Of a DNA stretch of 64,000 nucleotides, positions 2,164 through 63,746 are shown in pieces. How positions within the stretch are numbered: position 1 is the first letter of the stretch; each line of letters opens with the position of its first letter. Under the pieces are notes generated by a model, which was not told the DNA's origin, searched no databases, and was given only the letters and a program-made list of their open reading frames with translations. Source of the DNA: Candidatus Latescibacterota bacterium (GTDB lineage: Bacteria; Latescibacterota; UBA2968; UBA8231). The stretch is from the NCBI GenBank assembly GCA_965242865.1, contig CBDETK010000013.1:3584001-3648000 (forward strand). The letters run 5' to 3'. The translations under genes and the position numbers were made by a program.

Positions 2164-3087
2164 ATGTTGTGCAGAGCATTTGGCCGGACGGGCTGGCAGG
2201 TCTCGGCCATCGGTTTGGGAACTTGGAACATCGGCAACCAATGGGGCGCCGTTGACGAAGCCACCGCTTGGAGCACCGTGCGCACGGCCTTTGACTGCGG
2301 CGTCAATCTCTTCGACGCGGCCGAGTCCTACGGCACGCCCAACGGGCTGTCTGAGGAGCGGTTGGGGCGCGCCTTGGCCGGCATCCGGCACCAAGTTCTC
2401 GTAGTCAGCAAAATCGGCAATTGGGGCGCTCGCACCGGGCAGGGCGTACCCAAAACCACGGTCGACATGATCCGCCTGTGTGCCCACGCCTCCCTGCACC
2501 GGCTGCGCACGGACTGGCACGACGTGCTGTTGTGTCACGAAGGCCACATCGCCGACCCGTCGATCTACTTGGACGCCTTTGCCGCGCTGGTCGAGGAAGG
2601 GCGGTTGCGGGCCTTCGGCATCTCGACCGACAGCCTAGCCGTGCTCCAGCGCTTCAACGCGCACGGCGACTGCTCGGTGGTGGAGGTGGATTACTCGTTG
2701 ATCAACCGCCAGCCCGAAGCCGAGTTTTTGCCCTATTGCCAAGAGCAGGGCATTGCCGTGCTGGTGAGGGGGCCGCTGGCCAAGGGGCTTTTGTCTGGGC
2801 ACTACACCAAGGAGTCGGTTTTTACCGACGAAGTGCGGCAACCCTTCAACGCGGGCGCGGCGCAACGCCCCGAATTCGAGGCCAATTTGGCGCAAGTCGA
2901 GCGTCTGGCCGAGGTCGTCGCGCCCGGAGCGGCCATGGTCGAGAAGGCCCTCCAGTACGTCATTTCCCATCCGGCCGCGCCCGTGGCCATCCCCGGCGCC
3001 AAGTCGGCCGCCCAAGCCCGCGCCAACGCCGCGGCTGGCACCCAGCTGTTGCCCGCCGACGAGTTGGAGCGGCTGCGAGGCGATTGA
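2164..3087 (+). CDS. Aldo/keto reductase
   Basis: VSAIGLGTW, FDAAESYG, SEERLG, VSKIG, AIPGAKS. RBS AAGGAG. Confidence 0.9.
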   Translation: MLCRAFGRTGWQVSAIGLGTWNIGNQWGAVDEATAWSTVRTAFDCGVNLFDAAESYGTPNGLSEERLGRALAGIRHQVLVVSKIGNWGARTGQGVPKTTVDMIRLCAHASLHRLRTDWHDVLLCHEGHIADPSIYLDAFAALVEEGRLRAFGISTDSLAVLQRFNAHGDCSVVEVDYSLINRQPEAEFLPYCQEQGIAVLVRGPLAKGLLSGHYTKESVFTDEVRQPFNAGAAQRPEFEANLAQVERLAEVVAPGAAMVEKALQYVISHPAAPVAIPGAKSAAQARANAAAGTQLLPADELERLRGD

Positions 3088-52382: not shown

Positions 52383-54206
52383 CTATTTATATCTATCGGC
52401 CTGCATTTTGAACATTGAAGCGTACTTCCCATCCGCCGCCATGAGTTCCGCGTGACTGCCGTCTTCGGCAATACTCCCTTTGTCCAGAACGATAATGCGA
52501 TCGGCCATTTTGACGGTGGAAAGCCGGTGGGATATGAGCAATGTTATCTTGCCCTGCGTCAGTCCTTTGAACCGAAGATACATAGAATACTCTGCCTCGG
52601 CATCTAAGGCAGATGTAGGTTCATCGAGAATGAGTAAACCCGCATCGCTTCTGACGAAGGCTCTCGCCATCGCAACTTTCTGCCATTCTCCTTCAGATAG
52701 GTCAACGCCGCCAGCAAACTGTCTGCCTAATAGGGTGGAGTAGCCGTTAGCTAGCTTGGCAATAAGAGGGGTAGCCATACCCTTCTCGGCAGCTTCCTTT
52801 ATTAAGGCCAGATCGTCCACATTTTCTACTTTTCCGATTCCTATATTCTCGCGTACCGTCAGACTGAAACGCGAGAAGTCTTGAAAAATAGCTGAAATAT
52901 TGTTCCTCCAAGAATCGACTTCGTATTGTCTCAAATCAACTCCATTGATAAGGATACATCCGCTCGTCGGATCGTAGAAGCGACACAACAATTTGACAAT
53001 AGTGCTCTTTCCGGCTCCGTTGTCGCCTATCAAGGCGACAGTCTCGCCGGCGTTTATGGTGAAAGATACCCCTCCTAAAATTTCAGTCGCGCTTTCGGGA
53101 TAAGAGAAGTGGACATTCCTAAATTCAATAGTGGCCAGAGGTTTTTGGTGCTCGTGTGCTTCCAGTTCAGCCTTGGTCAATACAGGTTTGAGATTCAAAA
53201 ATTTCATAAAATCTCTATACTGAAAAGCCACCTCGGATAATTGGCCGCTCATCAAGGTGAACATCCAAAGAGTTTCCTGAACGGTTGTAACTGCTGAAAA
53301 ATAAAGCGCGATATCACCCGGTGTTATATCTCCTCTGGTGACGAGGTAGGTCACATAGACATACATACTAGCTAGCCCAATTCCACTCAACAAGGCAAAT
53401 TTTGACGTTAAGTGAGCGTGATCTATTTTTACAACCTTTACTGTTTTTAGGATTTTGTCGAACCCCGTGCTATATCGGTTTATGAAATACTTTCCGATAT
53501 TTAATGTCTTTATTTCTTTGATGGTCTTGGGATCGACCATTATCTGGAAGTAATAGTCGAGCTTACGAGATTCCGGCACATTGCTCCACATGACATCGTA
53601 CGATTTTTTATAATGGCGAAGCTGGACAATCAGGTGAGGGATAGAAACAATCACTAGTACCAAAGGTATAACCCAGTCTATTTTGAATAAGAGAAACAAA
53701 ATAAAAATCAGTGTGACGAAATTGCGAATTGAGGCTGAGATGAGCCAGAGCATAGTTTCAGGTAGAAACGTATGACGTTGCAGATATTGAAGGCGGTCGT
53801 AGAATTTAGGGGTTTCAAAGTAAAAAAGTCCGGGTAAAGAGGCTGAAGTCTCCATAATCATTTGATCGACTTTTCTTTGCAAACGATCGCACAGAGTTGT
53901 TCTAATCGCTTCACTTGCCGGGTTTATAATGAAATAGGCTACTTGAGAAAAAATAAAAATACCTCCCCAAAAAATGTGGCGATACGTAGCACCATCTTCC
54001 TGCGCTTGGTTGGTATCTATAATCGAGTACGAGATTTGATCGACGACGTACTTGACGACTAAAGCCGATAGCCCCGGTAGGATGCTTGCTAAAGTAAGCA
54101 AAAGAATAAACGCGATTGTCAGAAAGGCATCAGCTTTCCATGCTAAGTAAATAATACTACCACTAGCTCTTACCAGTTGTTTCGTTTGACTGATTAGCCG
54201 GTTCAT
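52383..54206 (-). CDS. ABC exporter (lasso cluster)
   Basis: GDNGAGKST, LSEGEWQK, LDEPTSALD. Confidence 0.9.
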   Translation of the reverse strand: MNRLISQTKQLVRASGSIIYLAWKADAFLTIAFILLLTLASILPGLSALVVKYVVDQISYSIIDTNQAQEDGATYRHIFWGGIFIFSQVAYFIINPASEAIRTTLCDRLQRKVDQMIMETSASLPGLFYFETPKFYDRLQYLQRHTFLPETMLWLISASIRNFVTLIFILFLLFKIDWVIPLVLVIVSIPHLIVQLRHYKKSYDVMWSNVPESRKLDYYFQIMVDPKTIKEIKTLNIGKYFINRYSTGFDKILKTVKVVKIDHAHLTSKFALLSGIGLASMYVYVTYLVTRGDITPGDIALYFSAVTTVQETLWMFTLMSGQLSEVAFQYRDFMKFLNLKPVLTKAELEAHEHQKPLATIEFRNVHFSYPESATEILGGVSFTINAGETVALIGDNGAGKSTIVKLLCRFYDPTSGCILINGVDLRQYEVDSWRNNISAIFQDFSRFSLTVRENIGIGKVENVDDLALIKEAAEKGMATPLIAKLANGYSTLLGRQFAGGVDLSEGEWQKVAMARAFVRSDAGLLILDEPTSALDAEAEYSMYLRFKGLTQGKITLLISHRLSTVKMADRIIVLDKGSIAEDGSHAELMAADGKYASMFKMQADRYK

Positions 54207-56044
54207 CTTTTATATTGCTTCGCTTGCATATTATACAATTCTGAGTAAACTCCTCGGAGATTGATCAGGGCACTATGGTTGCCTTCTTCTACGATACGGC
54301 CCCCTTCCAAGACTATGATTCTATCCACTACATGGGCTGTGGATAGCCGGTGGGATATGATCAGCGTGACCTTGTTCTTCGTTAAATCGCGAAAGTGGAG
54401 ATACGTTTCGTATTCGCTTTGCACATCTAGTGCTGCCGTGGGTTCATCCAGAATCAAAATCCGTGCATCTCTAAAAAAAGCACGGGCGATAGCCAGTTTT
54501 TGCCATTGGCCAATGGACAATTCAGTGCCTCCCTCAAACTGTTTTCCGAGGAGGGTGGCAAATTTATTTGGAAGTTTTTTAATAAAATCAGCTCCTGCTT
54601 GGTCTGCGGCCTCTTTTATCTTCTTCTTTTTTATAAGGCTTAGATTCCCCAACCCTATGTTTTCTTCGACCGTCAATTGATATCGGTTATAGTCTTGAAA
54701 AACAATTCCTATATTCTTTCGCAGTTCATCGAGGTCAAAGTGGCTGATTGGAATCCCATTGATCAGAATCTGTCCGCTGTGCGGATCGTACAAACGGACC
54801 AAGAGTTTGACAATAGTGGTCTTGCCAGCACCGTTTCTTCCCACTAGGGAAACTGATTCGTTGAAACTGATCGAAAAGGATACCTGATTTAATATCAGAC
54901 GGTCTGTTCTAGGGTATCTAAAACTCACCTCCTTAAAGTCAACGCGCTCGATAAAATCTGGGAAGGATCTCATTTTTTGATTGGAAATTATTTTAATAGC
55001 AGGTTTGGCTTGCAGAAGTGCAAAAAGATGAGAGAGCAACCTACCTCTTTGGAAAAGCATAGCAACGCCGAACATGCACTCGTTTGAATACATCCACAAC
55101 TGTATCGCTGCCGTTAGATAAGCGACTAAAGATCCGACAGTTAGCAATCCTTCCGTGGCTTGATGGACTAGATGGCTATAGACTGCATATAGGCCCACGC
55201 TACCAAATACGGTACACAAGGACAGCCAGAGAAACTCTCTGAAACGGACATTCCACAGAGTCGCCGTTATCTTCTTGAAAGTCTCATCGTACCGCAATAA
55301 AAAGAAACGGTACAGTCCCAGTAATTTTACATCCTTAGCGACTTCATACGAAAGCATCTGATTGCGGTAATAATCGAGCTTCCTCGCTTCAGGAGCCTGA
55401 TGTTGTATAGCAATGCCGGCCCTATTGGTGAAGACGTAATTCACTAAAGCATACGGTATTATTGTTAAAAGAAAAAAACCAGCAAAAATAAAATCGAGGG
55501 TGCTTAAAAACATGGCAATAAATACTATTTGCAATACATATTTACATGTATCAAAACCAAATATAACCACATCCGCAACGTTGGGCTGAATCCTTTGAAT
55601 TTGCCGTAATTGGTCGTGAAATTTCGGGTTTTCAAAATGCACCAGATCGGGCAACCCATCAACCGCATCCATCGTCAAGGTCGCGATATAACCTTTCATT
55701 TTATCCGCTAAAATACTTTGAAGGGCTAACGCTATAGGGGAAGTAATCGCGGTTAAGACAATGATGCACACCAATGCTATAAGATATAATAAAATGGAGT
55801 CGATGTCTCTATTTTCCATCTTGGATATTTTGATAGCATCATCGATCACAAATTTCATCAAATAAAGTTTCAAGGCCGGTAATATACTTTGTATGAGGGT
55901 CAGAGTGGCCATGCCAGACAATAAAGACAGTGGTGCCACCTGCCATATCATTACCGCAGTTTTACCTATCGCCGTACTAGCACTTTTTAACTCTTTGATA
56001 GAAGGCCACCAAGATTCGAGTTCTATTTTTTTATTTTTGTCCAT
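54203..56044 (-). CDS. ABC exporter (lasso cluster)
   Basis: GRNGAGKTT, LSIGQWQK. ATG overlaps the methyltransferase stop (TAATG). Confidence 0.9.
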   Translation of the reverse strand: MDKNKKIELESWWPSIKELKSASTAIGKTAVMIWQVAPLSLLSGMATLTLIQSILPALKLYLMKFVIDDAIKISKMENRDIDSILLYLIALVCIIVLTAITSPIALALQSILADKMKGYIATLTMDAVDGLPDLVHFENPKFHDQLRQIQRIQPNVADVVIFGFDTCKYVLQIVFIAMFLSTLDFIFAGFFLLTIIPYALVNYVFTNRAGIAIQHQAPEARKLDYYRNQMLSYEVAKDVKLLGLYRFFLLRYDETFKKITATLWNVRFREFLWLSLCTVFGSVGLYAVYSHLVHQATEGLLTVGSLVAYLTAAIQLWMYSNECMFGVAMLFQRGRLLSHLFALLQAKPAIKIISNQKMRSFPDFIERVDFKEVSFRYPRTDRLILNQVSFSISFNESVSLVGRNGAGKTTIVKLLVRLYDPHSGQILINGIPISHFDLDELRKNIGIVFQDYNRYQLTVEENIGLGNLSLIKKKKIKEAADQAGADFIKKLPNKFATLLGKQFEGGTELSIGQWQKLAIARAFFRDARILILDEPTAALDVQSEYETYLHFRDLTKNKVTLIISHRLSTAHVVDRIIVLEGGRIVEEGNHSALINLRGVYSELYNMQAKQYKR

Positions 56045-57003
56045 TACCTTGGAATCCATTGCCAAAGGGTCGAGTGGTTGAACTTAGTTATCTGCTTAGT
56101 CCCCAATTCAAATCCTTTGTAGAGAACTTCGACATCCCACTTCCAAATACAACCAGATGCTCCCGGACTAGCAATTAACCGGACGTCAACTCTGTCGTTT
56201 TCGTTGATGGGTAATGGCTTATAAATGGGTAAAAATATATTGTCCCAAGATGCCGTCTTTGAAGGAGGTGCATTAGTAATATATATGTCGTCAAATAGAC
56301 ACGCTCTAAACCATCCGCAAAGCCCTTGAAGTGTACCTTCTCTTTTTATTTTAAATGAAAATTTTGGACTTGCAAATCCAGATTTCTTTTTAGTATGGAA
56401 ATTGATCTGATGCACTGTTTGAGGTTCACTTAAGAAGTAAGACGGTTTTGCTCTAGTGCTATACACTTCATTCAGAGCCATTTCTCTTACACAAGAAAAA
56501 TCTATTCCGTACACATCTATACTCCATATATCTACTTCGCCATATAGTTGGTCATCTTCGACAGGTACGAGTATCATTTGTAAGCTAGTTGGTACTATCT
56601 TGCCGTTCTTCTTTAGAAATCTGTCACGGGCATCTGATATTGTCTCCACCACATTTTGGCCGAGCCCAAATTTTGAAATTAATTCAGAGATTATGACATC
56701 TGCCTTTTGTGGAATTTCGACATTTTGAGATTCGTCATTAATAAAAGTGATCTGTCTTGTGAAATTATTGCATTTAGCAATCTTTTCCGCCACTTTTACC
56801 ATTGCTGTCCTTTCAATCGCGTAAACTCGCTTTGCGCCAGCTTGGCACGCGAAGAAGGCCAATAATCCACTGCCCGTCCCAATATCGACAACAACGTCTC
56901 CTGGATTAACGCTACGCATTATTGCTTCTCTGTATAGCTGGTTGCGTAATGTATCTCCGACTAATAGTCGATGAAACGAGACACTGCTGAAATCTTCTGA
57001 CAT
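56044..57003 (-). CDS. PRMT-like SAM-dependent methyltransferase
   Basis: DTLRNQLYREAI, VVDIGTGSGLL, DVIISE, ARDRFLK, GLCGWF, TASW. Confidence 0.8.
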   Translation of the reverse strand: MSEDFSSVSFHRLLVGDTLRNQLYREAIMRSVNPGDVVVDIGTGSGLLAFFACQAGAKRVYAIERTAMVKVAEKIAKCNNFTRQITFINDESQNVEIPQKADVIISELISKFGLGQNVVETISDARDRFLKKNGKIVPTSLQMILVPVEDDQLYGEVDIWSIDVYGIDFSCVREMALNEVYSTRAKPSYFLSEPQTVHQINFHTKKKSGFASPKFSFKIKREGTLQGLCGWFRACLFDDIYITNAPPSKTASWDNIFLPIYKPLPINENDRVDVRLIASPGASGCIWKWDVEVLYKGFELGTKQITKFNHSTLWQWIPR

Positions 57004-57176
57004 TTTGTACCCTCGTTAATCTTAATCTCTTAAAAATAACAAATCTGCCTCAAATCAGGCTATGCTTCTACCTCGATAGGAGAGTTTTGGATAATATGCT
57101 CTTTTCCCGCGAAAACGGGAATCCAGCCGGTATCGTTTAGACGCAAAGGACAACCATCAGAGTTTTCAGACAGCTT

Positions 57177-57288
57177 TGCTCTGTTGAAAAGGCTTATTTA
57201 TTAGCTTGGTTCGCTCCATTATTCTATAATAACATCGTAGGAGCAAGCTATACAAGAAGCCTCCTTAACTCTGCTTTTCAACAGAGCA
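57177..57288. mobile_element. MITE with 15-bp TIRs and 9-bp TSD
   Basis: TGCTCTGTTGAAAAG / CTTTTCAACAGAGCA, flanked on both sides by AGACAGCTT. Confidence 0.8.
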
Positions 57289-57297
57289 AGACAGCTT

Positions 57298-57464
57298 CTA
57301 AGAAGCGTTCTTAAATAGGTATTCGGGGTCTCCGGGGTCTCAATCGGCTCAGGCTATTTAGGGCCGCGGCCATCTTCGCCCTATGAAAAACGCTGGACGC
57401 CAAGGCCGCTCGACAGCCTCGCCAAGCACCAAGCGTCCAACAGGGATTTTAAAAAGGCTTCTTA
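57298..57464. mobile_element. Second MITE-like element
   Basis: Imperfect IRs CTAAGAAGCGTTCTTAAA / TTTAAAAAGGCTTCTTAG with a GC-rich interior. Confidence 0.55.
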
Positions 57465-58517
57465 GTTTTCTATTTTTAAAACTTCCAATTTTCTAGTTCC
57501 GCTCATAGCGGCCGATTTAACGCCAGCATAAATCTCACCTTGGCTACCTTCTACTAAGCGGTATATTTCTCCATATTCTCTGTCTTTCTCCAGTTCGATC
57601 CAAACCTCTCTACATTTCCCATTCTCTCTCATCAACAGGAGTTTTACTCCACCTTTTCTCTGGAAATATGGAAGAGATATCAACATATCGCTGTCCCTTT
57701 GTAAAATCGATTGAGTAAAGCTTTTTCCAGCTTTAAGGTACTCGTCATCTATCTTACCATAAGTTACAACTCTATCTTCTCGAGTAAACAAGTGTATTGT
57801 ACCTGTAGCATCCCGGATAATGCGGCTTCCATCTTTCATAATTCCGACACACCTGCCCTCAGACTCTGTAGGCAAGCGGGCAACTTCGATTTCTTTTTTT
57901 TCTTCCAAAGTATAGATGGTCCCTTCTCTTCCCAACCATAAAATCTTACTATTTTGCCACCAGATGCTGTAAGGAGGCTTTGTACAGCCCCATACCTCAG
58001 CAACGCATTCTGATTCATTTGTACTGACATCAACTCGGTAGACTTGGTCATGTGGATATGCTATAGCGTAGAAGATAGGCTCTCTTGGCACCTTCGCCAG
58101 AGATCTAATCCCTTGTCTTTCTGCTACAAATCCCAATCTTCGGGGTTTCCACTCAGGGGATGAGCAGCTAAAAATGTACCCACCTTTATACTCATAACTA
58201 GGATCTTGGGTGATATTGGGCGTGGGACCATGGTGGGTAGCTCCGTATAAAATGCCATCTTCTCGCAGCAGAGACATATACACTTTAGAGTGAAATCTGG
58301 GTTCTGAAGCCAGATCTAGATCCGATGCGAGCATGACTCTCTTACTAATGTGGGATAGCGTATTGATTGCATACATCTGACAAGCCCGTTGTTTAAAACC
58401 CCACGTCGACAATGGAACAAAAAGAGTCTCATCAATGCATTCCATGTCCCAGATAACGGCTAACTGATTTTCTTTATCCACATACGAAGCGATTATATTT
58501 GCCTTCCAACGTTCCAT
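57462..58517 (-). CDS. Hypothetical protein, probable beta-propeller
   Basis: Beta-rich segments (GILYGATH, GIRSLA, GEIYAG). In the operon. Confidence 0.6.
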   Translation of the reverse strand: MERWKANIIASYVDKENQLAVIWDMECIDETLFVPLSTWGFKQRACQMYAINTLSHISKRVMLASDLDLASEPRFHSKVYMSLLREDGILYGATHHGPTPNITQDPSYEYKGGYIFSCSSPEWKPRRLGFVAERQGIRSLAKVPREPIFYAIAYPHDQVYRVDVSTNESECVAEVWGCTKPPYSIWWQNSKILWLGREGTIYTLEEKKEIEVARLPTESEGRCVGIMKDGSRIIRDATGTIHLFTREDRVVTYGKIDDEYLKAGKSFTQSILQRDSDMLISLPYFQRKGGVKLLLMRENGKCREVWIELEKDREYGEIYRLVEGSQGEIYAGVKSAAMSGTRKLEVLKIEN

Positions 58518-58526
58518 TTTTTCCTC

Positions 58527-59795
58527 TTAAGATGGGTGTAGGTCACGTGGGGACTTTATTTTTACTTTTTCTTTTTTCTCTTTAGCACTCGCTACTTTAG
58601 CGGCGATTATCTGACCGATCTCTCCATTTCTTATAACTACCCCGTTTGCCGTTAATAGATGCACTCCATTCAACCATCTGTTCGGATTGCACAGTCGGCC
58701 TGATATGTCTTGATGAGGTATTCTTATCTCTCTTTTCCCAGGTACAATCTGACCCTCGGAATTTACGTCCAATACTAATATATCATCTTTGCTGTCGCTC
58801 TCAGAAGTTCCAATTACTCTTATCAGGGCATCCAAGCTATCGCCTTGGAAAAGAGCATTCATCTTTCTAAAAAAATAGCCCATCGGGACCTGTAACTGAT
58901 GTTCGAATATTCTTTCTGCTATAATTTCTATACCTTCTTCGCTACTCACTACCTGATCTAACAGGATGTTGAGATTAGCGAAACGCCCCAGTTCCAAGTC
59001 GCTACCTATGATAGAAGCCGTCAAGCTCTGCATGAACACGGCTGCTTCATTCGCCAAGAGGAGGAAAGAATCGATAAGGTCTGGAACCCGGAGAGGTAAG
59101 CCCAATAAATCTGTTGTTATGGCGCGGTCATTCGCGCTTTTCCAAAGACCCATGGGTTGGGGGCCATTATCTTTATACGGCCTAATCGTCATTAGTGGTC
59201 TCGAGCCATCAGTCGAAAGAGACTGCGCCATTCGCTGAATAAAAGGATAAAGTCTATCAATAACTGGATCGGCTAAATCACTATATGGATCGTCGAAACT
59301 TTTAAATAGGTTCAAGCGCGGTAAAGAGAAAAGCTTGTATTCTGTGGCTAGTATATCTTTAACCTCGTCTACTGCTTTTTCGTTGACTAAGATTTCTACC
59401 GAACGGGAGCGCCCAAAGGAATCCTCGCCATAAATCCTTCGTCCCAACCCCATAGTCGGCCATATGGTAAAATCAACTCCTCGTTTCAGCAACATGCTGC
59501 CAAACTGGCGTAGCAGCGCGAGTTGATATCTCTCCAGATTGGCCAGTTCCGCACGAAAAAACAGACACTCTGGATCTATCGGATTCAAAGTTTCCTCCGG
59601 GGGCCGCATAGTGTACTGGAACCGGTATCTCAGCATATGGGGCAACACACGCTGTTGCAGCAGCACAGATAGTAGCGGCCTATTTTCGCTCTGGAGTATA
59701 TCGGGCGGTTTGAGGGAGTCTATATAAGCCAGATCGAATTTGGGTTTAGCCAATTCAACCATTATCTCCCATACATCTTCTTTCAATTCTTCCAT
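58527..59795 (-). CDS. Divergent nucleotidyltransferase-family protein
   Basis: IYGEDSFGRSRSVEILV resembles the R..D.D.LV motif. Lasso-cluster context. Confidence 0.5.
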   Translation of the reverse strand: MEELKEDVWEIMVELAKPKFDLAYIDSLKPPDILQSENRPLLSVLLQQRVLPHMLRYRFQYTMRPPEETLNPIDPECLFFRAELANLERYQLALLRQFGSMLLKRGVDFTIWPTMGLGRRIYGEDSFGRSRSVEILVNEKAVDEVKDILATEYKLFSLPRLNLFKSFDDPYSDLADPVIDRLYPFIQRMAQSLSTDGSRPLMTIRPYKDNGPQPMGLWKSANDRAITTDLLGLPLRVPDLIDSFLLLANEAAVFMQSLTASIIGSDLELGRFANLNILLDQVVSSEEGIEIIAERIFEHQLQVPMGYFFRKMNALFQGDSLDALIRVIGTSESDSKDDILVLDVNSEGQIVPGKREIRIPHQDISGRLCNPNRWLNGVHLLTANGVVIRNGEIGQIIAAKVASAKEKKEKVKIKSPRDLHPS

Positions 59796-59810: not shown

Positions 59811-60464
59811 TCAATTGTGGTTCTGTTTTTTGTCTTGAATTAGTTTCGCTCCGACCTCCAAAAGTGCTTGGGGGCCATTTCGTCGCAATCCTTTAATGTA
59901 CATCTCAGGCTTATTAGCTCGATATTGGACTTCTTCAGCGAAGAAATAGGCAATGTCGGTGTTGGCCTTGATCCACCTTTCTTTTTGAACTAGATTTTGG
60001 ATAGCTCTTCGGATAGCGAGTGGGTCAGTCCAGTTTGCTTTGAAAACCACCTTACCCTCTTTGTCAATTATCCAACTCATATTGGGTCGGGACCCGTAAA
60101 GCTTGTGAGCTTTTTCATCAAACCTATCGACCCATATATCGCGCTTTACACCATATAATCTCTTGAATGCCCATGCGTGATCTATTTTCTGTTCAATTGA
60201 GCGGTGTTCAGGCCAGTATTCTCCTGGATGTGCCTCGGATGTATATACAAAAACTAGTTCAAAACCAAATTCTGAAAACTCTACATTTAAATATTCCATC
60301 GCTGGAATGACATCGACACAGTAGGGACAAGTAATACTTCCAAATTCGAGGACCACATGTTGTCGGCCGATATAGTCCGATAAGTTGGCTTCTCCCTTTC
60401 CCAGATTAATAGCGCAGAAATCTGGAGCTTGCTCAAGCAGTTTTATCCTGTCTGTGAAACTCAT
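59811..60464 (-). CDS. Deiodinase-like/AhpC-TSA thioredoxin-fold protein
   Basis: VLEFGSITCPYC, VYTSEAHP, YGSRPN. Confidence 0.8.
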   Translation of the reverse strand: MSFTDRIKLLEQAPDFCAINLGKGEANLSDYIGRQHVVLEFGSITCPYCVDVIPAMEYLNVEFSEFGFELVFVYTSEAHPGEYWPEHRSIEQKIDHAWAFKRLYGVKRDIWVDRFDEKAHKLYGSRPNMSWIIDKEGKVVFKANWTDPLAIRRAIQNLVQKERWIKANTDIAYFFAEEVQYRANKPEMYIKGLRRNGPQALLEVGAKLIQDKKQNHN

Positions 60465-60610: not shown

Positions 60611-60754
60611 TTAGCAATTGACTTTCCGAGTACAATTGGCATCATAGGCCTGGCTACCGCCAGCAGTGACTAGCCCCACGGCATTGCCGAACCTAACCAC
60701 GACGGGAATGACATATTCCTTTTTCGCGGTCTTTGCCTGTTCTTCCTTACTCAT
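60611..60754 (-). CDS. Lasso peptide precursor A2 (47 aa; not in ORF track)
   Basis: RBS AAGGAGG then MSKEEQAKTAKKEYVIPVVVRFGNAVGLVT-AGGSQAYDANCTRKVNC. Confidence 0.85.
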   Translation of the reverse strand: MSKEEQAKTAKKEYVIPVVVRFGNAVGLVTAGGSQAYDANCTRKVNC

Positions 60755-60792: not shown

Positions 60793-60954
60793 CTAACCGC
60801 AGTGTTGACGGGTCCCTCCTGTTTCGAACTGGCAGTTGCCATTACCAGCGGCGAGCGTGGCAACATTGCCGAAATTGACTAGTACAGGGGACTGATAGTT
60901 CTTCTTTTTTGGAGGAACCTGTCCCTGCTCGTGAGGTTGGTGCTTCTTGTGCAT
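60793..60954 (-). CDS. Lasso peptide precursor A1 (53 aa)
   Basis: RBS AAGGAG; YQSPVLVNFG leader motif; core GNGNCQFETGGTRQHCG. Confidence 0.88.
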   Translation of the reverse strand: MHKKHQPHEQGQVPPKKKNYQSPVLVNFGNVATLAAGNGNCQFETGGTRQHCG

Positions 60955-61012: not shown

Positions 61013-62974
61013 TTAGATGCCATATTTTCTATGCATTCTATCGAGCCATAGCTCGATAGAAAGAGCATTTAGAAGATTCCCCAGATGTGTCCAATTACCT
61101 TGCATCCAATGAGATAGACTTCGTGTAAATTTATCGTGATCTAAATAGCCTCTCCTAACCGTTTCAAATCCTCTCGTCTGGCCCTTCTCTATGAGACGGG
61201 GCAATTCTTGCTGTAAGCCTCTAAGAGCTGGACGACCGAAATCAGGGCCTCTTCGACGCGTCCTCACTTCTTCAGGTAGTATATCTTTTAGTGCCTCCCG
61301 CATAATTACTTTTCTATGACGTCTACCTGAAGGCACTTCAATATAGGTCTTCAAGCCCATAGGTACACCTAGCATATATTCAAGAAGACGCTTATCATAG
61401 TATGGCATACGTATTTCGATAGATTGAGGCGACGCGACATATTCATCCATCCAACAGTATCCTGTGTCTTCATATAACGACCGATACTCAATCCGCATAG
61501 ACTGAACTGGGAAATGACGATCTGGAAGTAATTCTCGGAGTCTTTTACGGGCACCCATTTTTTTGGCAAAATCGGGATTCACCCAGTCTACCATAACAGG
61601 GCCTCCAAAGGAATCGAAATAATGCCAGTATTCAGGCTTGACGTGTAAAATAGGACTCAAGATAGTTTGCCAAAACTCGGGAACGAGGGGTTTAATAGCA
61701 AAATTTATTAAAGCATGTAGGTACGTCTGGTTCCTTGCATATGACCACATTTTAAGCTCACGCGTTAGCTCTTTGAACCTTCCCTTACGTAATAGATCGG
61801 CTAGATATAAGGGATTACCTTGTAGAATGGCATCTCCACCATCCCCCCTAAGCCAAACTCGTGCGCCAAATCTATATACAGCCGAAACAGTACGTAATAC
61901 CTGATCATAAGCTGAGAATCCACCACTCGGCTCATCTGTAAGGGGAGCATGTTGAAGCTGATTCTGAAAAAGGAAAAAGTCGTCCGACGGAATTTCAATG
62001 GTATTTTTGATTTGGTATTTATCTACTACTTGCCGTTGAAAATACCGCTCATCTGACTCAGGAAAGTCATCAAAGACCATTGAGCAGGTTGTAAAGCCGT
62101 TAGAAGGAATCTCGCCTTGATTATATATCTCTTGTGCCATAGACACAATCGAGGACGAGTCCAAACCACCGCTGAGGTCTGAGACCACGGGTTTCATACA
62201 ACGCAACCGGCACCTAACCGCCTCGCGAAAAAGTTCCCGTAGCCGTTCTTGATAGTCTTCGGTTTTCTGATAGCGAACCTCAGAAACTTCACGCGGGTCC
62301 CAATAAGCAATAGGGTCACTTACCCCATGCCGATCTACTTTTATATAATGAGCCGGTGGTAATCTCAATATATCCTCAAATACAGTAGTTGGAGTAGATA
62401 GCGGTCCAACTGCACAATATAACAGATAGTCAAGGATATAGTTATCATTTATTTTCATCGGAAAGGATGGTTCCTGAAAAATCTGTCTAATCGAAGACCC
62501 CCATATCAAAGTATTCTTGAACTTAGTATAATAAAACGGACGGATCCCCATAAAATCACGTGCACAGAGCAGTGTTTCCGTTTTCGCATCCCAGATGGAA
62601 AATGCGAAATCCCCAACTATTTTTTTTAAGCATTCAATATTCCATTTTTCGTAAGACAGCAAAATTAACTCTGCATCTGTCGGGGAAAATTGAGGGGTTT
62701 TATCTTTTTTTAATAGAGAGATCAGCTCATCCCGATTATCTACGCGCCCATCGCAGACTATCCAGATATTGGAACCCCTAATCGACAAGGGCTGGATCTC
62801 CCTGTAGGATTCTTCGGTCGTATGAAATTGGCAATGAGCCATACCTATATGGTATAGTACAGTCTGATTTACCCGTTCAGCACCCCGATGAGAAATTTGC
62901 ATAATCATATTTTTCAGCATATTCTCATCAATCGGTTTTTTGTCTAGGTTTAATATCCCCGCAATACCAGCCAT
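61013..62974 (-). CDS. Lasso cyclase (asparagine synthetase-like, C protein)
   Basis: N-terminus MAGIAG lacks the AsnB Cys; DLSGGLDSS, GDGGD. Adjacent to B1/B2 and the precursors. Confidence 0.9.
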   Translation of the reverse strand: MAGIAGILNLDKKPIDENMLKNMIMQISHRGAERVNQTVLYHIGMAHCQFHTTEESYREIQPLSIRGSNIWIVCDGRVDNRDELISLLKKDKTPQFSPTDAELILLSYEKWNIECLKKIVGDFAFSIWDAKTETLLCARDFMGIRPFYYTKFKNTLIWGSSIRQIFQEPSFPMKINDNYILDYLLYCAVGPLSTPTTVFEDILRLPPAHYIKVDRHGVSDPIAYWDPREVSEVRYQKTEDYQERLRELFREAVRCRLRCMKPVVSDLSGGLDSSSIVSMAQEIYNQGEIPSNGFTTCSMVFDDFPESDERYFQRQVVDKYQIKNTIEIPSDDFFLFQNQLQHAPLTDEPSGGFSAYDQVLRTVSAVYRFGARVWLRGDGGDAILQGNPLYLADLLRKGRFKELTRELKMWSYARNQTYLHALINFAIKPLVPEFWQTILSPILHVKPEYWHYFDSFGGPVMVDWVNPDFAKKMGARKRLRELLPDRHFPVQSMRIEYRSLYEDTGYCWMDEYVASPQSIEIRMPYYDKRLLEYMLGVPMGLKTYIEVPSGRRHRKVIMREALKDILPEEVRTRRRGPDFGRPALRGLQQELPRLIEKGQTRGFETVRRGYLDHDKFTRSLSHWMQGNWTHLGNLLNALSIELWLDRMHRKYGI

Positions 62975-63022: not shown

Positions 63023-63463
63023 TCAGCAAACAGATATTACCGAATACCTATCTCTAAGATCCACAGAATCATTTACTACTTTGCCATAGCACTCAACCCA
63101 AGCATGAAAAACTAGCGGAGGGAACTTCGTATATCCGATACACAACTCAGCCGGAAACCTATACTTTCTAAGCAAGGAACAGATAACCAAAGACCTTTCA
63201 AGGCACTTTACGCGCCTTACATAAATTCGTGCGGCCTGCTTACCAATTTCTGAGATAAGGTCTACCAAATCAACTTCAGAAACCATTTGGTTTTCGTTCC
63301 TTGGCTTCGTAATAACGTGCTGCTTCACTAGGCTCTGGGCACATTTTCCAAAGCCGAACAGTCGCAGATATATATCGGTTTTTACATAGAGCGTGTACGC
63401 CTGTAAAAAAATGTAGAAATACTTTAGCCGCTTTTCAGGGGCCATTAAATTGGTGTCAGTCAT
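63023..63463 (-). CDS. Lasso leader peptidase B2
   Basis: KCLERSL...FHAWVE transglutaminase-like motifs. Confidence 0.92.
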   Translation of the reverse strand: MTDTNLMAPEKRLKYFYIFLQAYTLYVKTDIYLRLFGFGKCAQSLVKQHVITKPRNENQMVSEVDLVDLISEIGKQAARIYVRRVKCLERSLVICSLLRKYRFPAELCIGYTKFPPLVFHAWVECYGKVVNDSVDLRDRYSVISVC

Positions 63464-63746
63464 TTCGTATATCTAACACTCCGTTTTTATTTAACTCAGT
63501 TATCAGAGCTAATATATCTCCCCGTAACTGATCTTCGCCGACATCGTATTCCTCCATTAAATCTCTCAATATCTGCTCTATGGCTATACCGTCTTTTTTA
63601 TGATTCGCCAGTTCCCAGAAACTTTTACCGACAGCTACCAACCCATAGAACTCGCCGCTTTCAAAATTCAGGATCACCACATTTTCGCCATCTATTGTCG
63701 ATTCAACATGGTCTGGAATCGAAATCTTAGTTGAGGGATCTATCAT
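63456..63746 (-). CDS. Lasso RRE protein B1 (PqqD family)
   Basis: VILNFESGEFYGL, FWEL, EYDV...DILALITEL..GVL. Confidence 0.92.
   Translation of the reverse strand: MIDPSTKISIPDHVESTIDGENVVILNFESGEFYGLVAVGKSFWELANHKKDGIAIEQILRDLMEEYDVGEDQLRGDILALITELNKNGVLDIRND

Follow-up and report, generated by a model that had tools for sequence, protein, structure and literature searches.

What a methyltransferase with the fold of the eukaryotic protein arginine methyltransferases (PRMTs) is doing among the lasso peptide genes of a Candidatus Latescibacterota bacterium is the question raised by the locus described here. The DNA analysed, referred to below as the window, is a stretch of 64,000 nucleotides of contig CBDETK010000013.1 (assembly GCA_965242865.1, positions 3,584,001 to 3,648,000 of the forward strand), and the enzyme in question is encoded by this feature:

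56044..57003, minus strand: PRMT-fold S-adenosylmethionine (SAM) methyltransferase of 319 amino acids, of the 'Q-type' and without a C-terminal tail (Pfam, phmmer, AlphaFold2 model, clade alignment)

Judged from its sequence and its setting, the enzyme quite probably has a dedicated role in tailoring the two lasso peptides of the cluster, since its SAM site is intact, its pocket is under selection, it lies on a lasso island, it is coupled to an exporter gene and its relatives repeatedly share contigs with lasso genes. The full explanation that we favour, namely that it would be an active SAM methyltransferase that tailors both lassos, most likely at the side-chain nitrogen of core residue 13, is put forward tentatively and with somewhat less than even confidence.

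The methyltransferase gene starts with ATG, preceded 7 nt upstream by a Shine-Dalgarno-like GAGGG, and its product matches the Pfam families PRMT5_C (1.1e-14, 55.2 bits against a cut-off of 30.3) and PRMT_C (8.6e-14, 52.2 bits against a cut-off of 27), with further matches to PrmA (6e-11) and PRMT5; no NCBIfam model reaches its own cut-off. A phmmer search of the sequences in the Protein Data Bank (PDB) returned 73 distinct chains at E<=1e-3, of which the best 60 are all PRMTs, headed by PRMT6 (2e-31) and followed by CARM1, PRMT3, PRMT8, PRMT1, PRMT2, PRMT7, PRMT9 and PRMT5. The first helix carries D17, R20, Y24 and A27-I28; motif I of the class I SAM-binding Rossmann domain reads VVVDIGTGSG (residues 37-46), with E64 as the post-I acidic residue; and these are followed by DVIISE (102-107), ARDRFLK (125-131), GWF (230-232) and TASW (250-253). 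This agreement with PRMTs is far beyond chance, and each motif of the PRMT-like layout listed in a preliminary description of the locus is present in the translation.

The AlphaFold2 model, computed from an alignment of 28 sequences, has a mean predicted local distance difference test score (pLDDT) of 90.8 and a predicted template modelling score (pTM) of 0.88. Foldseek matches it to PRMT2, PRMT6, PRMT8, PRMT1, CARM1 and Hmt1 with E down to 6e-31 and template modelling scores of 0.77-0.87, and VIA-align superposes it on type I PRMTs over residues 2-313 (Z 33-35, root mean square deviation 2.0-3.0 Å, about 300 residues), the match to CARM1 having a Z of 35.3 and a deviation of 2.2 Å over 302 residues. 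Helices 151-161 and 170-177 occupy the position of the dimerisation arm, and both the Pfam matches (PRMT_C and PRMT5_C) and the model place a C-terminal PRMT beta-barrel with this arm in the protein. The enzyme is thus predicted to have a complete type I PRMT fold, and the comparison of a predicted structure with PRMTs that the preliminary description had proposed comes out as a full-length match. The label 'eukaryote-type' used there suits the fold but not the distribution, as the family is widespread in bacteria (336 matches; 223 loci).

The substrate pocket is where the enzyme departs from its PRMT relatives. Its key residues are E107, K111, Q116, S252, W253, D254 and N255. In the phmmer alignments, Gln116 stands opposite the second double-E Glu of PRMT6 and CARM1, as the preliminary description had proposed, with E107 kept, and within T250-A251-S252-W253 it is Ser252 that aligns with the His of the THW loop, the Trp being retained. 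Q116 and S252 correspond to the positions of PRMT1 E153 and H293.

These changes are not peculiar to the window. In a set of 212 family sequences, made up of 120 database proteins, 91 loci and the window protein, 149 have Glu as the second double-E residue and 37 have Gln; the remaining 26 have something else there. In a FastTree phylogeny of 208 of these sequences, four with more than 25% gaps having been dropped, all Gln forms and a few Glu forms make up one clade, inside which lies the tail-less lineage of the window protein and P0001-P0004. The Q-type signature is SELISK..GQ together with [S/A]WDN. Among the 37 Q-type sequences, the first guanidinium-binding Glu, E107, is present in 100%, as are L108, G115, Q116 and W253, with I109 in 97% and K111, D254 and N255 in 95% each; the His position is Ser or Ala. 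The SAM site is equally constant (G42, G44, G46, R20 and D102 at 100% each, E64 at 84%), and D17 is conserved in the family alignments. On these alignments, such constancy fits a pocket that works, has been re-specified and is under selection rather than decaying. Sister lineages carry the full E/E/THW set and a PqqD-like tail, and the Q-type clade is predicted to descend from forms with the full Arg-binding set. A tail of at least 30 residues is found in 15 of the 37 Q-type sequences, and by hhalign its profile pairs with PqqD's helical half (probability 67%, E 5e-5), although Pfam PqqD does not match the tailed Q-type proteins P0024 and P0026. The window enzyme has no such domain, neither PqqD-like nor another RRE (RiPP recognition element, where RiPP denotes a peptide that is ribosomally synthesised and then modified post-translationally); it ends at the barrel, and a stand-alone B1 protein is encoded in the cluster. 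Because the tail of its relatives is absent, the window enzyme may act on the mature lasso or make use of the stand-alone B1.

The gene lies on a low-GC island: between about 52.3 kb and the end of the window the GC fraction is 0.36-0.50, against about 0.6 on either side; the value returns to about 0.6 just past the window end, giving an island of about 11.7 kb. Every large open reading frame (ORF) between 52.4 and 63.7 kb is on the minus strand, and the island holds B1, B2, C, two precursors, three accessory genes, the PRMT-fold gene and two ABC exporters, and nothing else. In the direction of transcription, the other features are as follows:

63456..63746, minus strand: PqqD-type RRE protein B1 (Pfam PqqD, 1.7e-13)
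63023..63463, minus strand: lasso leader peptidase B2 (lasso_biosyn_B2, 78.2 bits, cut-off 33)
61013..62974, minus strand: lasso cyclase C (Asn_synthase and GATase; NCBIfam lass_lactam_cya at 404.5 bits, below its cut-off of 525)
60793..60954, minus strand: precursor A1, 53 amino acids, with putative core GNGNCQFETGGTRQHCG (G1-E8 ring, R13, C5, C16)
60611..60754, minus strand: precursor A2, 47 amino acids, with putative core AGGSQAYDANCTRKVNC (A1-D8 ring, R13, C11, C17)
59811..60464, minus strand: thioredoxin-fold protein with a CPYC motif (AhpC-TSA, 2e-10; NCBIfam deiodinase_rel at 56.6 bits, cut-off 250)
58527..59795, minus strand: 422-amino-acid protein with no Pfam match even at E<=10; a language model gives NTP_transf_5 (PF14907) as a lead
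57462..58517, minus strand: 351-amino-acid protein without a family; its one lead is beta-propeller-like
57004..57461: 458-bp gap upstream of the methyltransferase gene, with a repeat at about 57103-57176
54203..56065, minus strand: ABC exporter half-transporter 1 (ABC1), MsbA-like, with a likely start at ATG 56044-56042
52383..54206, minus strand: ABC exporter half-transporter 2, MsbA-like, overlapping ABC1 by 4 nt, at the 3' edge of the low-GC island

The methyltransferase stop codon (TAA, 56046-56044) shares one base with the in-frame ATG of ABC1, and this TAATG overlap is predicted to couple translation of the methyltransferase to that of the exporter. The lasso cluster that bears the PRMT-fold gene is horizontally acquired. 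The host genome has a single copy of the methyltransferase gene, a search of 30 genomes from its genus gave no match at E<=1e-30, and a separate search of 24 same-genus genomes gave matches of at most 22 bits. Across the host phylum, 9 of 168 genomes match at E<=1e-30, the host included, and the best of the others scores 254 bits against 614 for the self-match.

Recurrence of the gene with lasso genes elsewhere supports its membership of the cluster. A word-index search with the window enzyme yielded 1365 candidates, of which 336 are relatives: one at 98% identity, the tail-less P0002-P0004 at 50-51%, and all others at or below 45%. The nearest relatives of the window cyclase are ten proteins, P0122-P0131, at 43-49% identity, after which identity falls to 36%. 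Shared contigs for a PRMT homologue, a cyclase and a precursor were read from contigs of equal size, which does not imply adjacency, and in this sense the following sets were found:

Contig of size 22725: PRMT homologue P0002, cyclase P0122, no precursor found
Contig of size 2150480: PRMT homologue P0003, cyclase P0124, precursor P0244
Contig of size 94429: PRMT homologue P0004, cyclase P0255, precursor P0246
Contig of size 38069: PRMT homologue P0254, cyclase P0125, precursor P0252
Contig of size 10800: PRMT homologue P0040, a more distant Q-type protein, cyclase P0218 (a fragment), no precursor found

In four other assemblies, PRMT homologues accordingly lie on the contigs of the nearest cyclases and precursors. 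Given the low-GC island that holds lasso genes only, the TAATG coupling and the co-location of the nearest relatives with the nearest cyclases and precursors, we regard the link between the PRMT-fold gene and lasso biosynthesis as likely and well supported. Homologues without a link to RiPP clusters had been named in the preliminary description as grounds for abandoning the proposal, and for the subclade of the window enzyme the linkage holds. The enzyme looks like an accessory gene present in part of this lasso clade, because seven contigs of the cyclase clade (7002, 129998, 18520, 3677893, 100996, 26824 and 3961) have no match of equal size among the best 120 methyltransferase relatives. In two further samples of 401 genomes each, 7 genomes of the phylum of locus L041 matched at E<=1e-40 and 19 of the phylum of locus L026 at E<=1e-55, with no close relative among them, the sole other Q-type loop being that of L110, which is the same locus as L036. 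A metagenome scan for relatives at 50% identity gave none with a single protein as query and, with an alignment, 11 loci that are all at or below 38% identity.

If the enzyme tailors the lassos, which atom would it methylate? The leader motif Y..P.(L/V)...G and its spacing, which we take to be those usual for lasso peptides, set the core register. Both leaders bear this motif, and with its Tyr placed at -17 the cores have 8-residue rings and Arg13 in A1 and A2 alike. In this register, the earlier statement that the two cores share Arg13 is borne out, and whatever the register, an Arg stands 5 residues past the ring Glu or Asp in both. Both precursor genes have good ribosome-binding sites. The cleavage sites of A1 and A2 are putative and placed by leader spacing, because A1 has Ala and A2 has Val at position -2 (A2 has Thr at -1), where lasso leaders usually have the Thr that is called conserved in the accessible part of PMC10368454. 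A word-index search with the precursors found, besides A1 and A2 themselves, only P0242, a relative of A1 at 83% identity with core GSHNCQYETGGGRTECG, and in the alignment of A1, P0242 and A2 the sole invariant core residue is R49, which is core R13. A precursor profile search of 1.84 billion representatives gave 10 proteins at E<=1e-3, A2 among them. In the alignment of A1 with these 10 matches, position 13 is Arg in 7 of the 11 precursors, Lys in 2, and Thr or Trp followed by Lys14 in the remaining 2.

On the explanation that we favour, a SAM-dependent methyltransferase of type I PRMT fold would act on both lasso peptides of the cluster, most likely at a side-chain nitrogen of the conserved basic core residue 13, five residues past the ring Glu or Asp, which is Arg in both window cores. 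The product would be a lasso peptide with mono- or dimethylated arginine, exported afterwards by the pair of co-translated ABC half-transporters; here we infer that the enzyme is catalytically active, that the peptide is its substrate and residue 13 its target, and when it acts. Arg13 is favoured because it is the sole invariant residue of the close cores, because E107 is retained and because the clade's ancestry includes the full Arg-binding set. Residue 13 may also be a steric plug, keeping the tail within the ring. In more general terms, the methyl mark that the enzyme probably adds would be one so far undescribed for lasso peptides, and it is possible, though we consider it doubtful, that the Q-type enzymes form a new class of RiPP side-chain N-methyltransferases, which here would make omega-N-methyl- or dimethyl-arginine at residue 13.

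Several observations weigh against arginine 13 as the target. The accessible part of PMC11681865 reports that PRMT1 E153Q is catalytically inactive or very weak on Arg peptides and that H293G/E153Q is weaker still, near background, and the same two positions are changed in the window enzyme. The K111 gained in the Q-type substrate loop is unexpected for a cationic substrate. P0246, on a contig size-matched with P0004, does have R13, but P0244, size-matched with P0003, has Lys13, and P0003 is 76% identical to P0004 with the same loops as P0004 and the window enzyme. Basic residues at position 13 are common to the whole precursor family, and the seven contigs of the cyclase clade listed above lack an equal-size match among the best 120 of the 336 methyltransferase relatives; conservation of R13 need not, therefore, reflect methylation. 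In addition, the 458-bp gap with its host repeat parts the methyltransferase gene from the upstream tailoring genes, and the Q-type locus L036 has no tblastn match to cyclase, B1 or B2 in the 10-kb flanks on each side. As for the PRMT1 mutants, the changes in the window enzyme differ from theirs in being fixed across a clade and accompanied by further compensating or retargeting changes, and the activity of the Q-type enzymes may accordingly be kept or redirected. The preliminary description had called the enzyme a candidate lasso Arg13 methyltransferase; its PRMT fold and, through the island, the coupling and the co-location, its place in the lasso cluster have stood up, whereas the evidence for Arg13 itself is mixed. 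The alternative it offered, a shifted substrate such as His or Lys, is still a candidate, and so is a target at the C-terminal Cys or carboxyl, which it had not raised.

A second explanation keeps the lasso as substrate and changes the atom, so that the PRMT scaffold would be retooled for a non-guanidino nucleophile. The leading candidate is the thiol or carboxylate of a C-terminal or penultimate Cys, with His15 or Lys14 as further options, and we consider this explanation possible but in doubt. A Cys at the last or second-last position is found in all four types of PRMT-linked core (..HCG in A1, ..VNC in A2, ..TNC in P0246 and P0252, ..NNC in P0244), and P0246 and P0244, with one Cys each, can form no intramolecular disulfide. 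The Q116/S252 pair matches a PRMT1 mutant described as inactive on Arg peptides (PMC11681865, accessible part), the new K111 could bind an anion, and the core of locus L011 in a separate lasso-linked PRMT-fold clade, SGTASLGDGGPMMMACL, which has no Arg, Lys or His and ends in Cys-Leu, indicates that a PRMT fold can serve targets other than Arg. On the other hand, E107 is strictly kept, and the Cys pairs C5/C16 of A1 and C11/C17 of A2, together with the CPYC gene, fit disulfides better than S-methylation; in keeping with these pairs, a dedicated disulfide-forming step by the CPYC thioredoxin-fold protein is plausible. The related precursors P0249, P0250 and P0251, from clusters that may or may not encode the enzyme, are also without Cys.

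PRMT-fold enzymes normally methylate folded proteins, and a third explanation is that the substrate would be a cellular protein and not the lasso, for example the producer's own copy of the peptide's target, modified for self-protection beside the exporter. The coupling to the ABC exporter, the gap between the gene and those for the precursors and their maturation, the missing RRE tail and the absence of lasso genes within 10 kb of the Q-type relative L036 would all suit such a role. We nevertheless think it unlikely, given that the gene travels with lasso genes in at least four other assemblies, that the PqqD-like tails of 15 of 37 Q-type relatives point to binding of peptide leaders, and that no candidate target is known.

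Some PRMTs have inactive 'prozyme' partners. A non-catalytic scaffold or chaperone of PRMT fold that binds the peptide or a partner enzyme would accommodate the same two substitutions as in the near-dead PRMT1 double mutant (PMC11681865, accessible part) and the presence of the Trypanosoma brucei PRMT1 enzyme-prozyme complex (6dnz) among the structural matches of the model, but it is very unlikely in view of SAM-binding residues that are intact and conserved across the 37 Q-type sequences and of altered residues that are themselves conserved.

With the type I PRMTs (PRMT1, CARM1/PRMT4, PRMT6, PRMT8, PRMT2 and Hmt1) the window enzyme shares, at 22-25% identity, the Rossmann domain, the beta-barrel and the dimerisation-arm region, along with motif I, the post-I Glu, the H/D/R/Y residues of the alpha-Y helix, the first double-E Glu and the THW Trp. 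Unlike them, it has Gln116 for Glu, Ser252 for the THW His and newly conserved K111, D254 and N255, has no N-terminal extension, comes from a bacterium and has its gene in a lasso-peptide cluster. The methylations reported for lasso peptides are O-methylation at the C-terminus and, as a route to aspartimide, at Asp (PMC9266682, PMC11285071 and PMC13352647, in the parts accessible), in agreement with the targets, C-terminal carboxyl and Asp, that the preliminary description had given for known lasso methyltransferases. The enzymes concerned, LasF and StspM for the C-terminal carboxyl and the PIMT-type TceM and LihM for Asp, are likewise SAM-dependent tailoring enzymes in lasso clusters, yet the window enzyme is unrelated to them in family and has the PRMT beta-barrel. 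No Pfam match to PCMT or Methyltransf_2 was found in it at E<=0.01, and its sole PIMT signal (19.2 bits, E 6.9e-4) covers residues 31-76, the motif I region. Outside the lassos, plantazolicin carries alpha-N-dimethylation of its N-terminal Arg (PMC11285071, accessible part), and SznE of the streptozotocin pathway is described in the accessible part of PMC12637814 as a bacterial free-arginine N-methyltransferase that makes omega-N-methylarginine. Its substrate is free arginine and not a peptide.

A second group of PRMT-fold proteins also adjoins lasso genes. Among the 92 loci for which DNA was available, 42 have the E/E pair with THW, 26 have E/E without the His, 14 have Asp as the first residue, 2 are Q-type, 7 are other and 1 is unclassified; cyclase neighbours occur with the Asp type only, at 7 loci. 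This kinase-linked family with PqqD tails (L011, L026, L031, L034, L044, L092 and others) has the PRMT fold, adjoins lasso B1, B2 and C, and is accompanied by precursors with the same Y..P.L...G leader motif as those of the window. It forms a separate, Asp-type clade in which the first Glu has become Asp, the second is Ser, Ala, Gly or Asp, and the THW Trp is lost, and it has a tail of about 32 amino acids, whereas the window enzyme has E107/Q116/W253, no tail and a place in a different clade. The gene order is B1-B2-C, a conserved P-loop protein of about 320-340 amino acids, the tailed methyltransferase and NTP_transf_5; a blastp comparison of the kinase-like P-loop proteins with the proteins of the window cluster gave nothing below E 0.038. 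At another Asp-type locus, L074 (8068-12590), the PRMT-fold gene has two JmjC-domain proteins, one of them fused to PqqD, and an ABC exporter on its flanks, with a cyclase homologue about 7 kb away and an accessory set unlike that of the kinase clusters.

A literature search, with most subscription journals outside its coverage, found no published PRMT-fold RiPP methyltransferase and no lasso arginine side-chain methylation. Side-chain N-methylation, if it occurs here, would be new chemistry for lasso peptides, and methylation at Arg13 would be the first arginine methylation reported in one. It would also provide the first function for a bacterial PRMT-fold enzyme with a natural Gln in place of the second catalytic Glu, and would point to an alternative catalytic solution for guanidino methylation (E107 with D254 or K111), such that the usual picture of PRMT catalysis would need amending; a target other than Arg would instead demonstrate retargeting of the scaffold. 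In either case, a PRMT-fold enzyme that decorates lassos would represent new tailoring chemistry and a new handle for genome mining, as well as a tractable bacterial system for pocket function in PRMTs with the second Glu and the THW His replaced. The cluster is compact (11.7 kb) and has its own exporter, making it suited to heterologous expression.

Among the neighbouring genes, the CPYC thioredoxin-fold gene sits between the precursors and the remaining accessory genes. Language-model features of the 422-amino-acid protein point to NTP_transf_5 (PF14907; score 0.95, 28 of 30 matches), the family that adjoins the methyltransferase in the kinase-linked lasso clusters; comparison with a two-sequence NTP_transf_5 profile gave an hhalign probability of 0.2%, and the family is not confirmed. 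For the 351-amino-acid protein, the language-model neighbours are hypothetical proteins with SMP-30, Reg_prop and WD40 leads, which suggests a beta-propeller, and it shows no similarity to the kinase-like P-loop protein of the sister clusters.

The neighbours of the Q-type gene at L036 look like housekeeping genes, judged from ORF translations with no family search. At L090, the other Q-type locus with DNA, on a 3.2-kb metagenome contig whose length is insufficient for judging the neighbourhood, an ORF for an 80-amino-acid, very Lys-rich protein (2495-2737, plus strand) lies directly downstream of a tailed Q-type methyltransferase gene; it has no Pfam match and may encode a candidate substrate or have arisen by chance.

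Scans of the gap at 57004-57461 gave no promoter on the coding (minus) strand, no terminator and no inverted repeat, and Rfam assigned it to no family, with one chance-level miRNA match elsewhere in the island. A second stretch of the gap (query positions 292-458) matches one other site at 75%. The element of about 70 nt within the gap has 18 further partial matches on the same contig, 12 of which span at least 59 nt at 79-93% identity, and it appears to be a small repeat of the host that has inserted into the foreign island.

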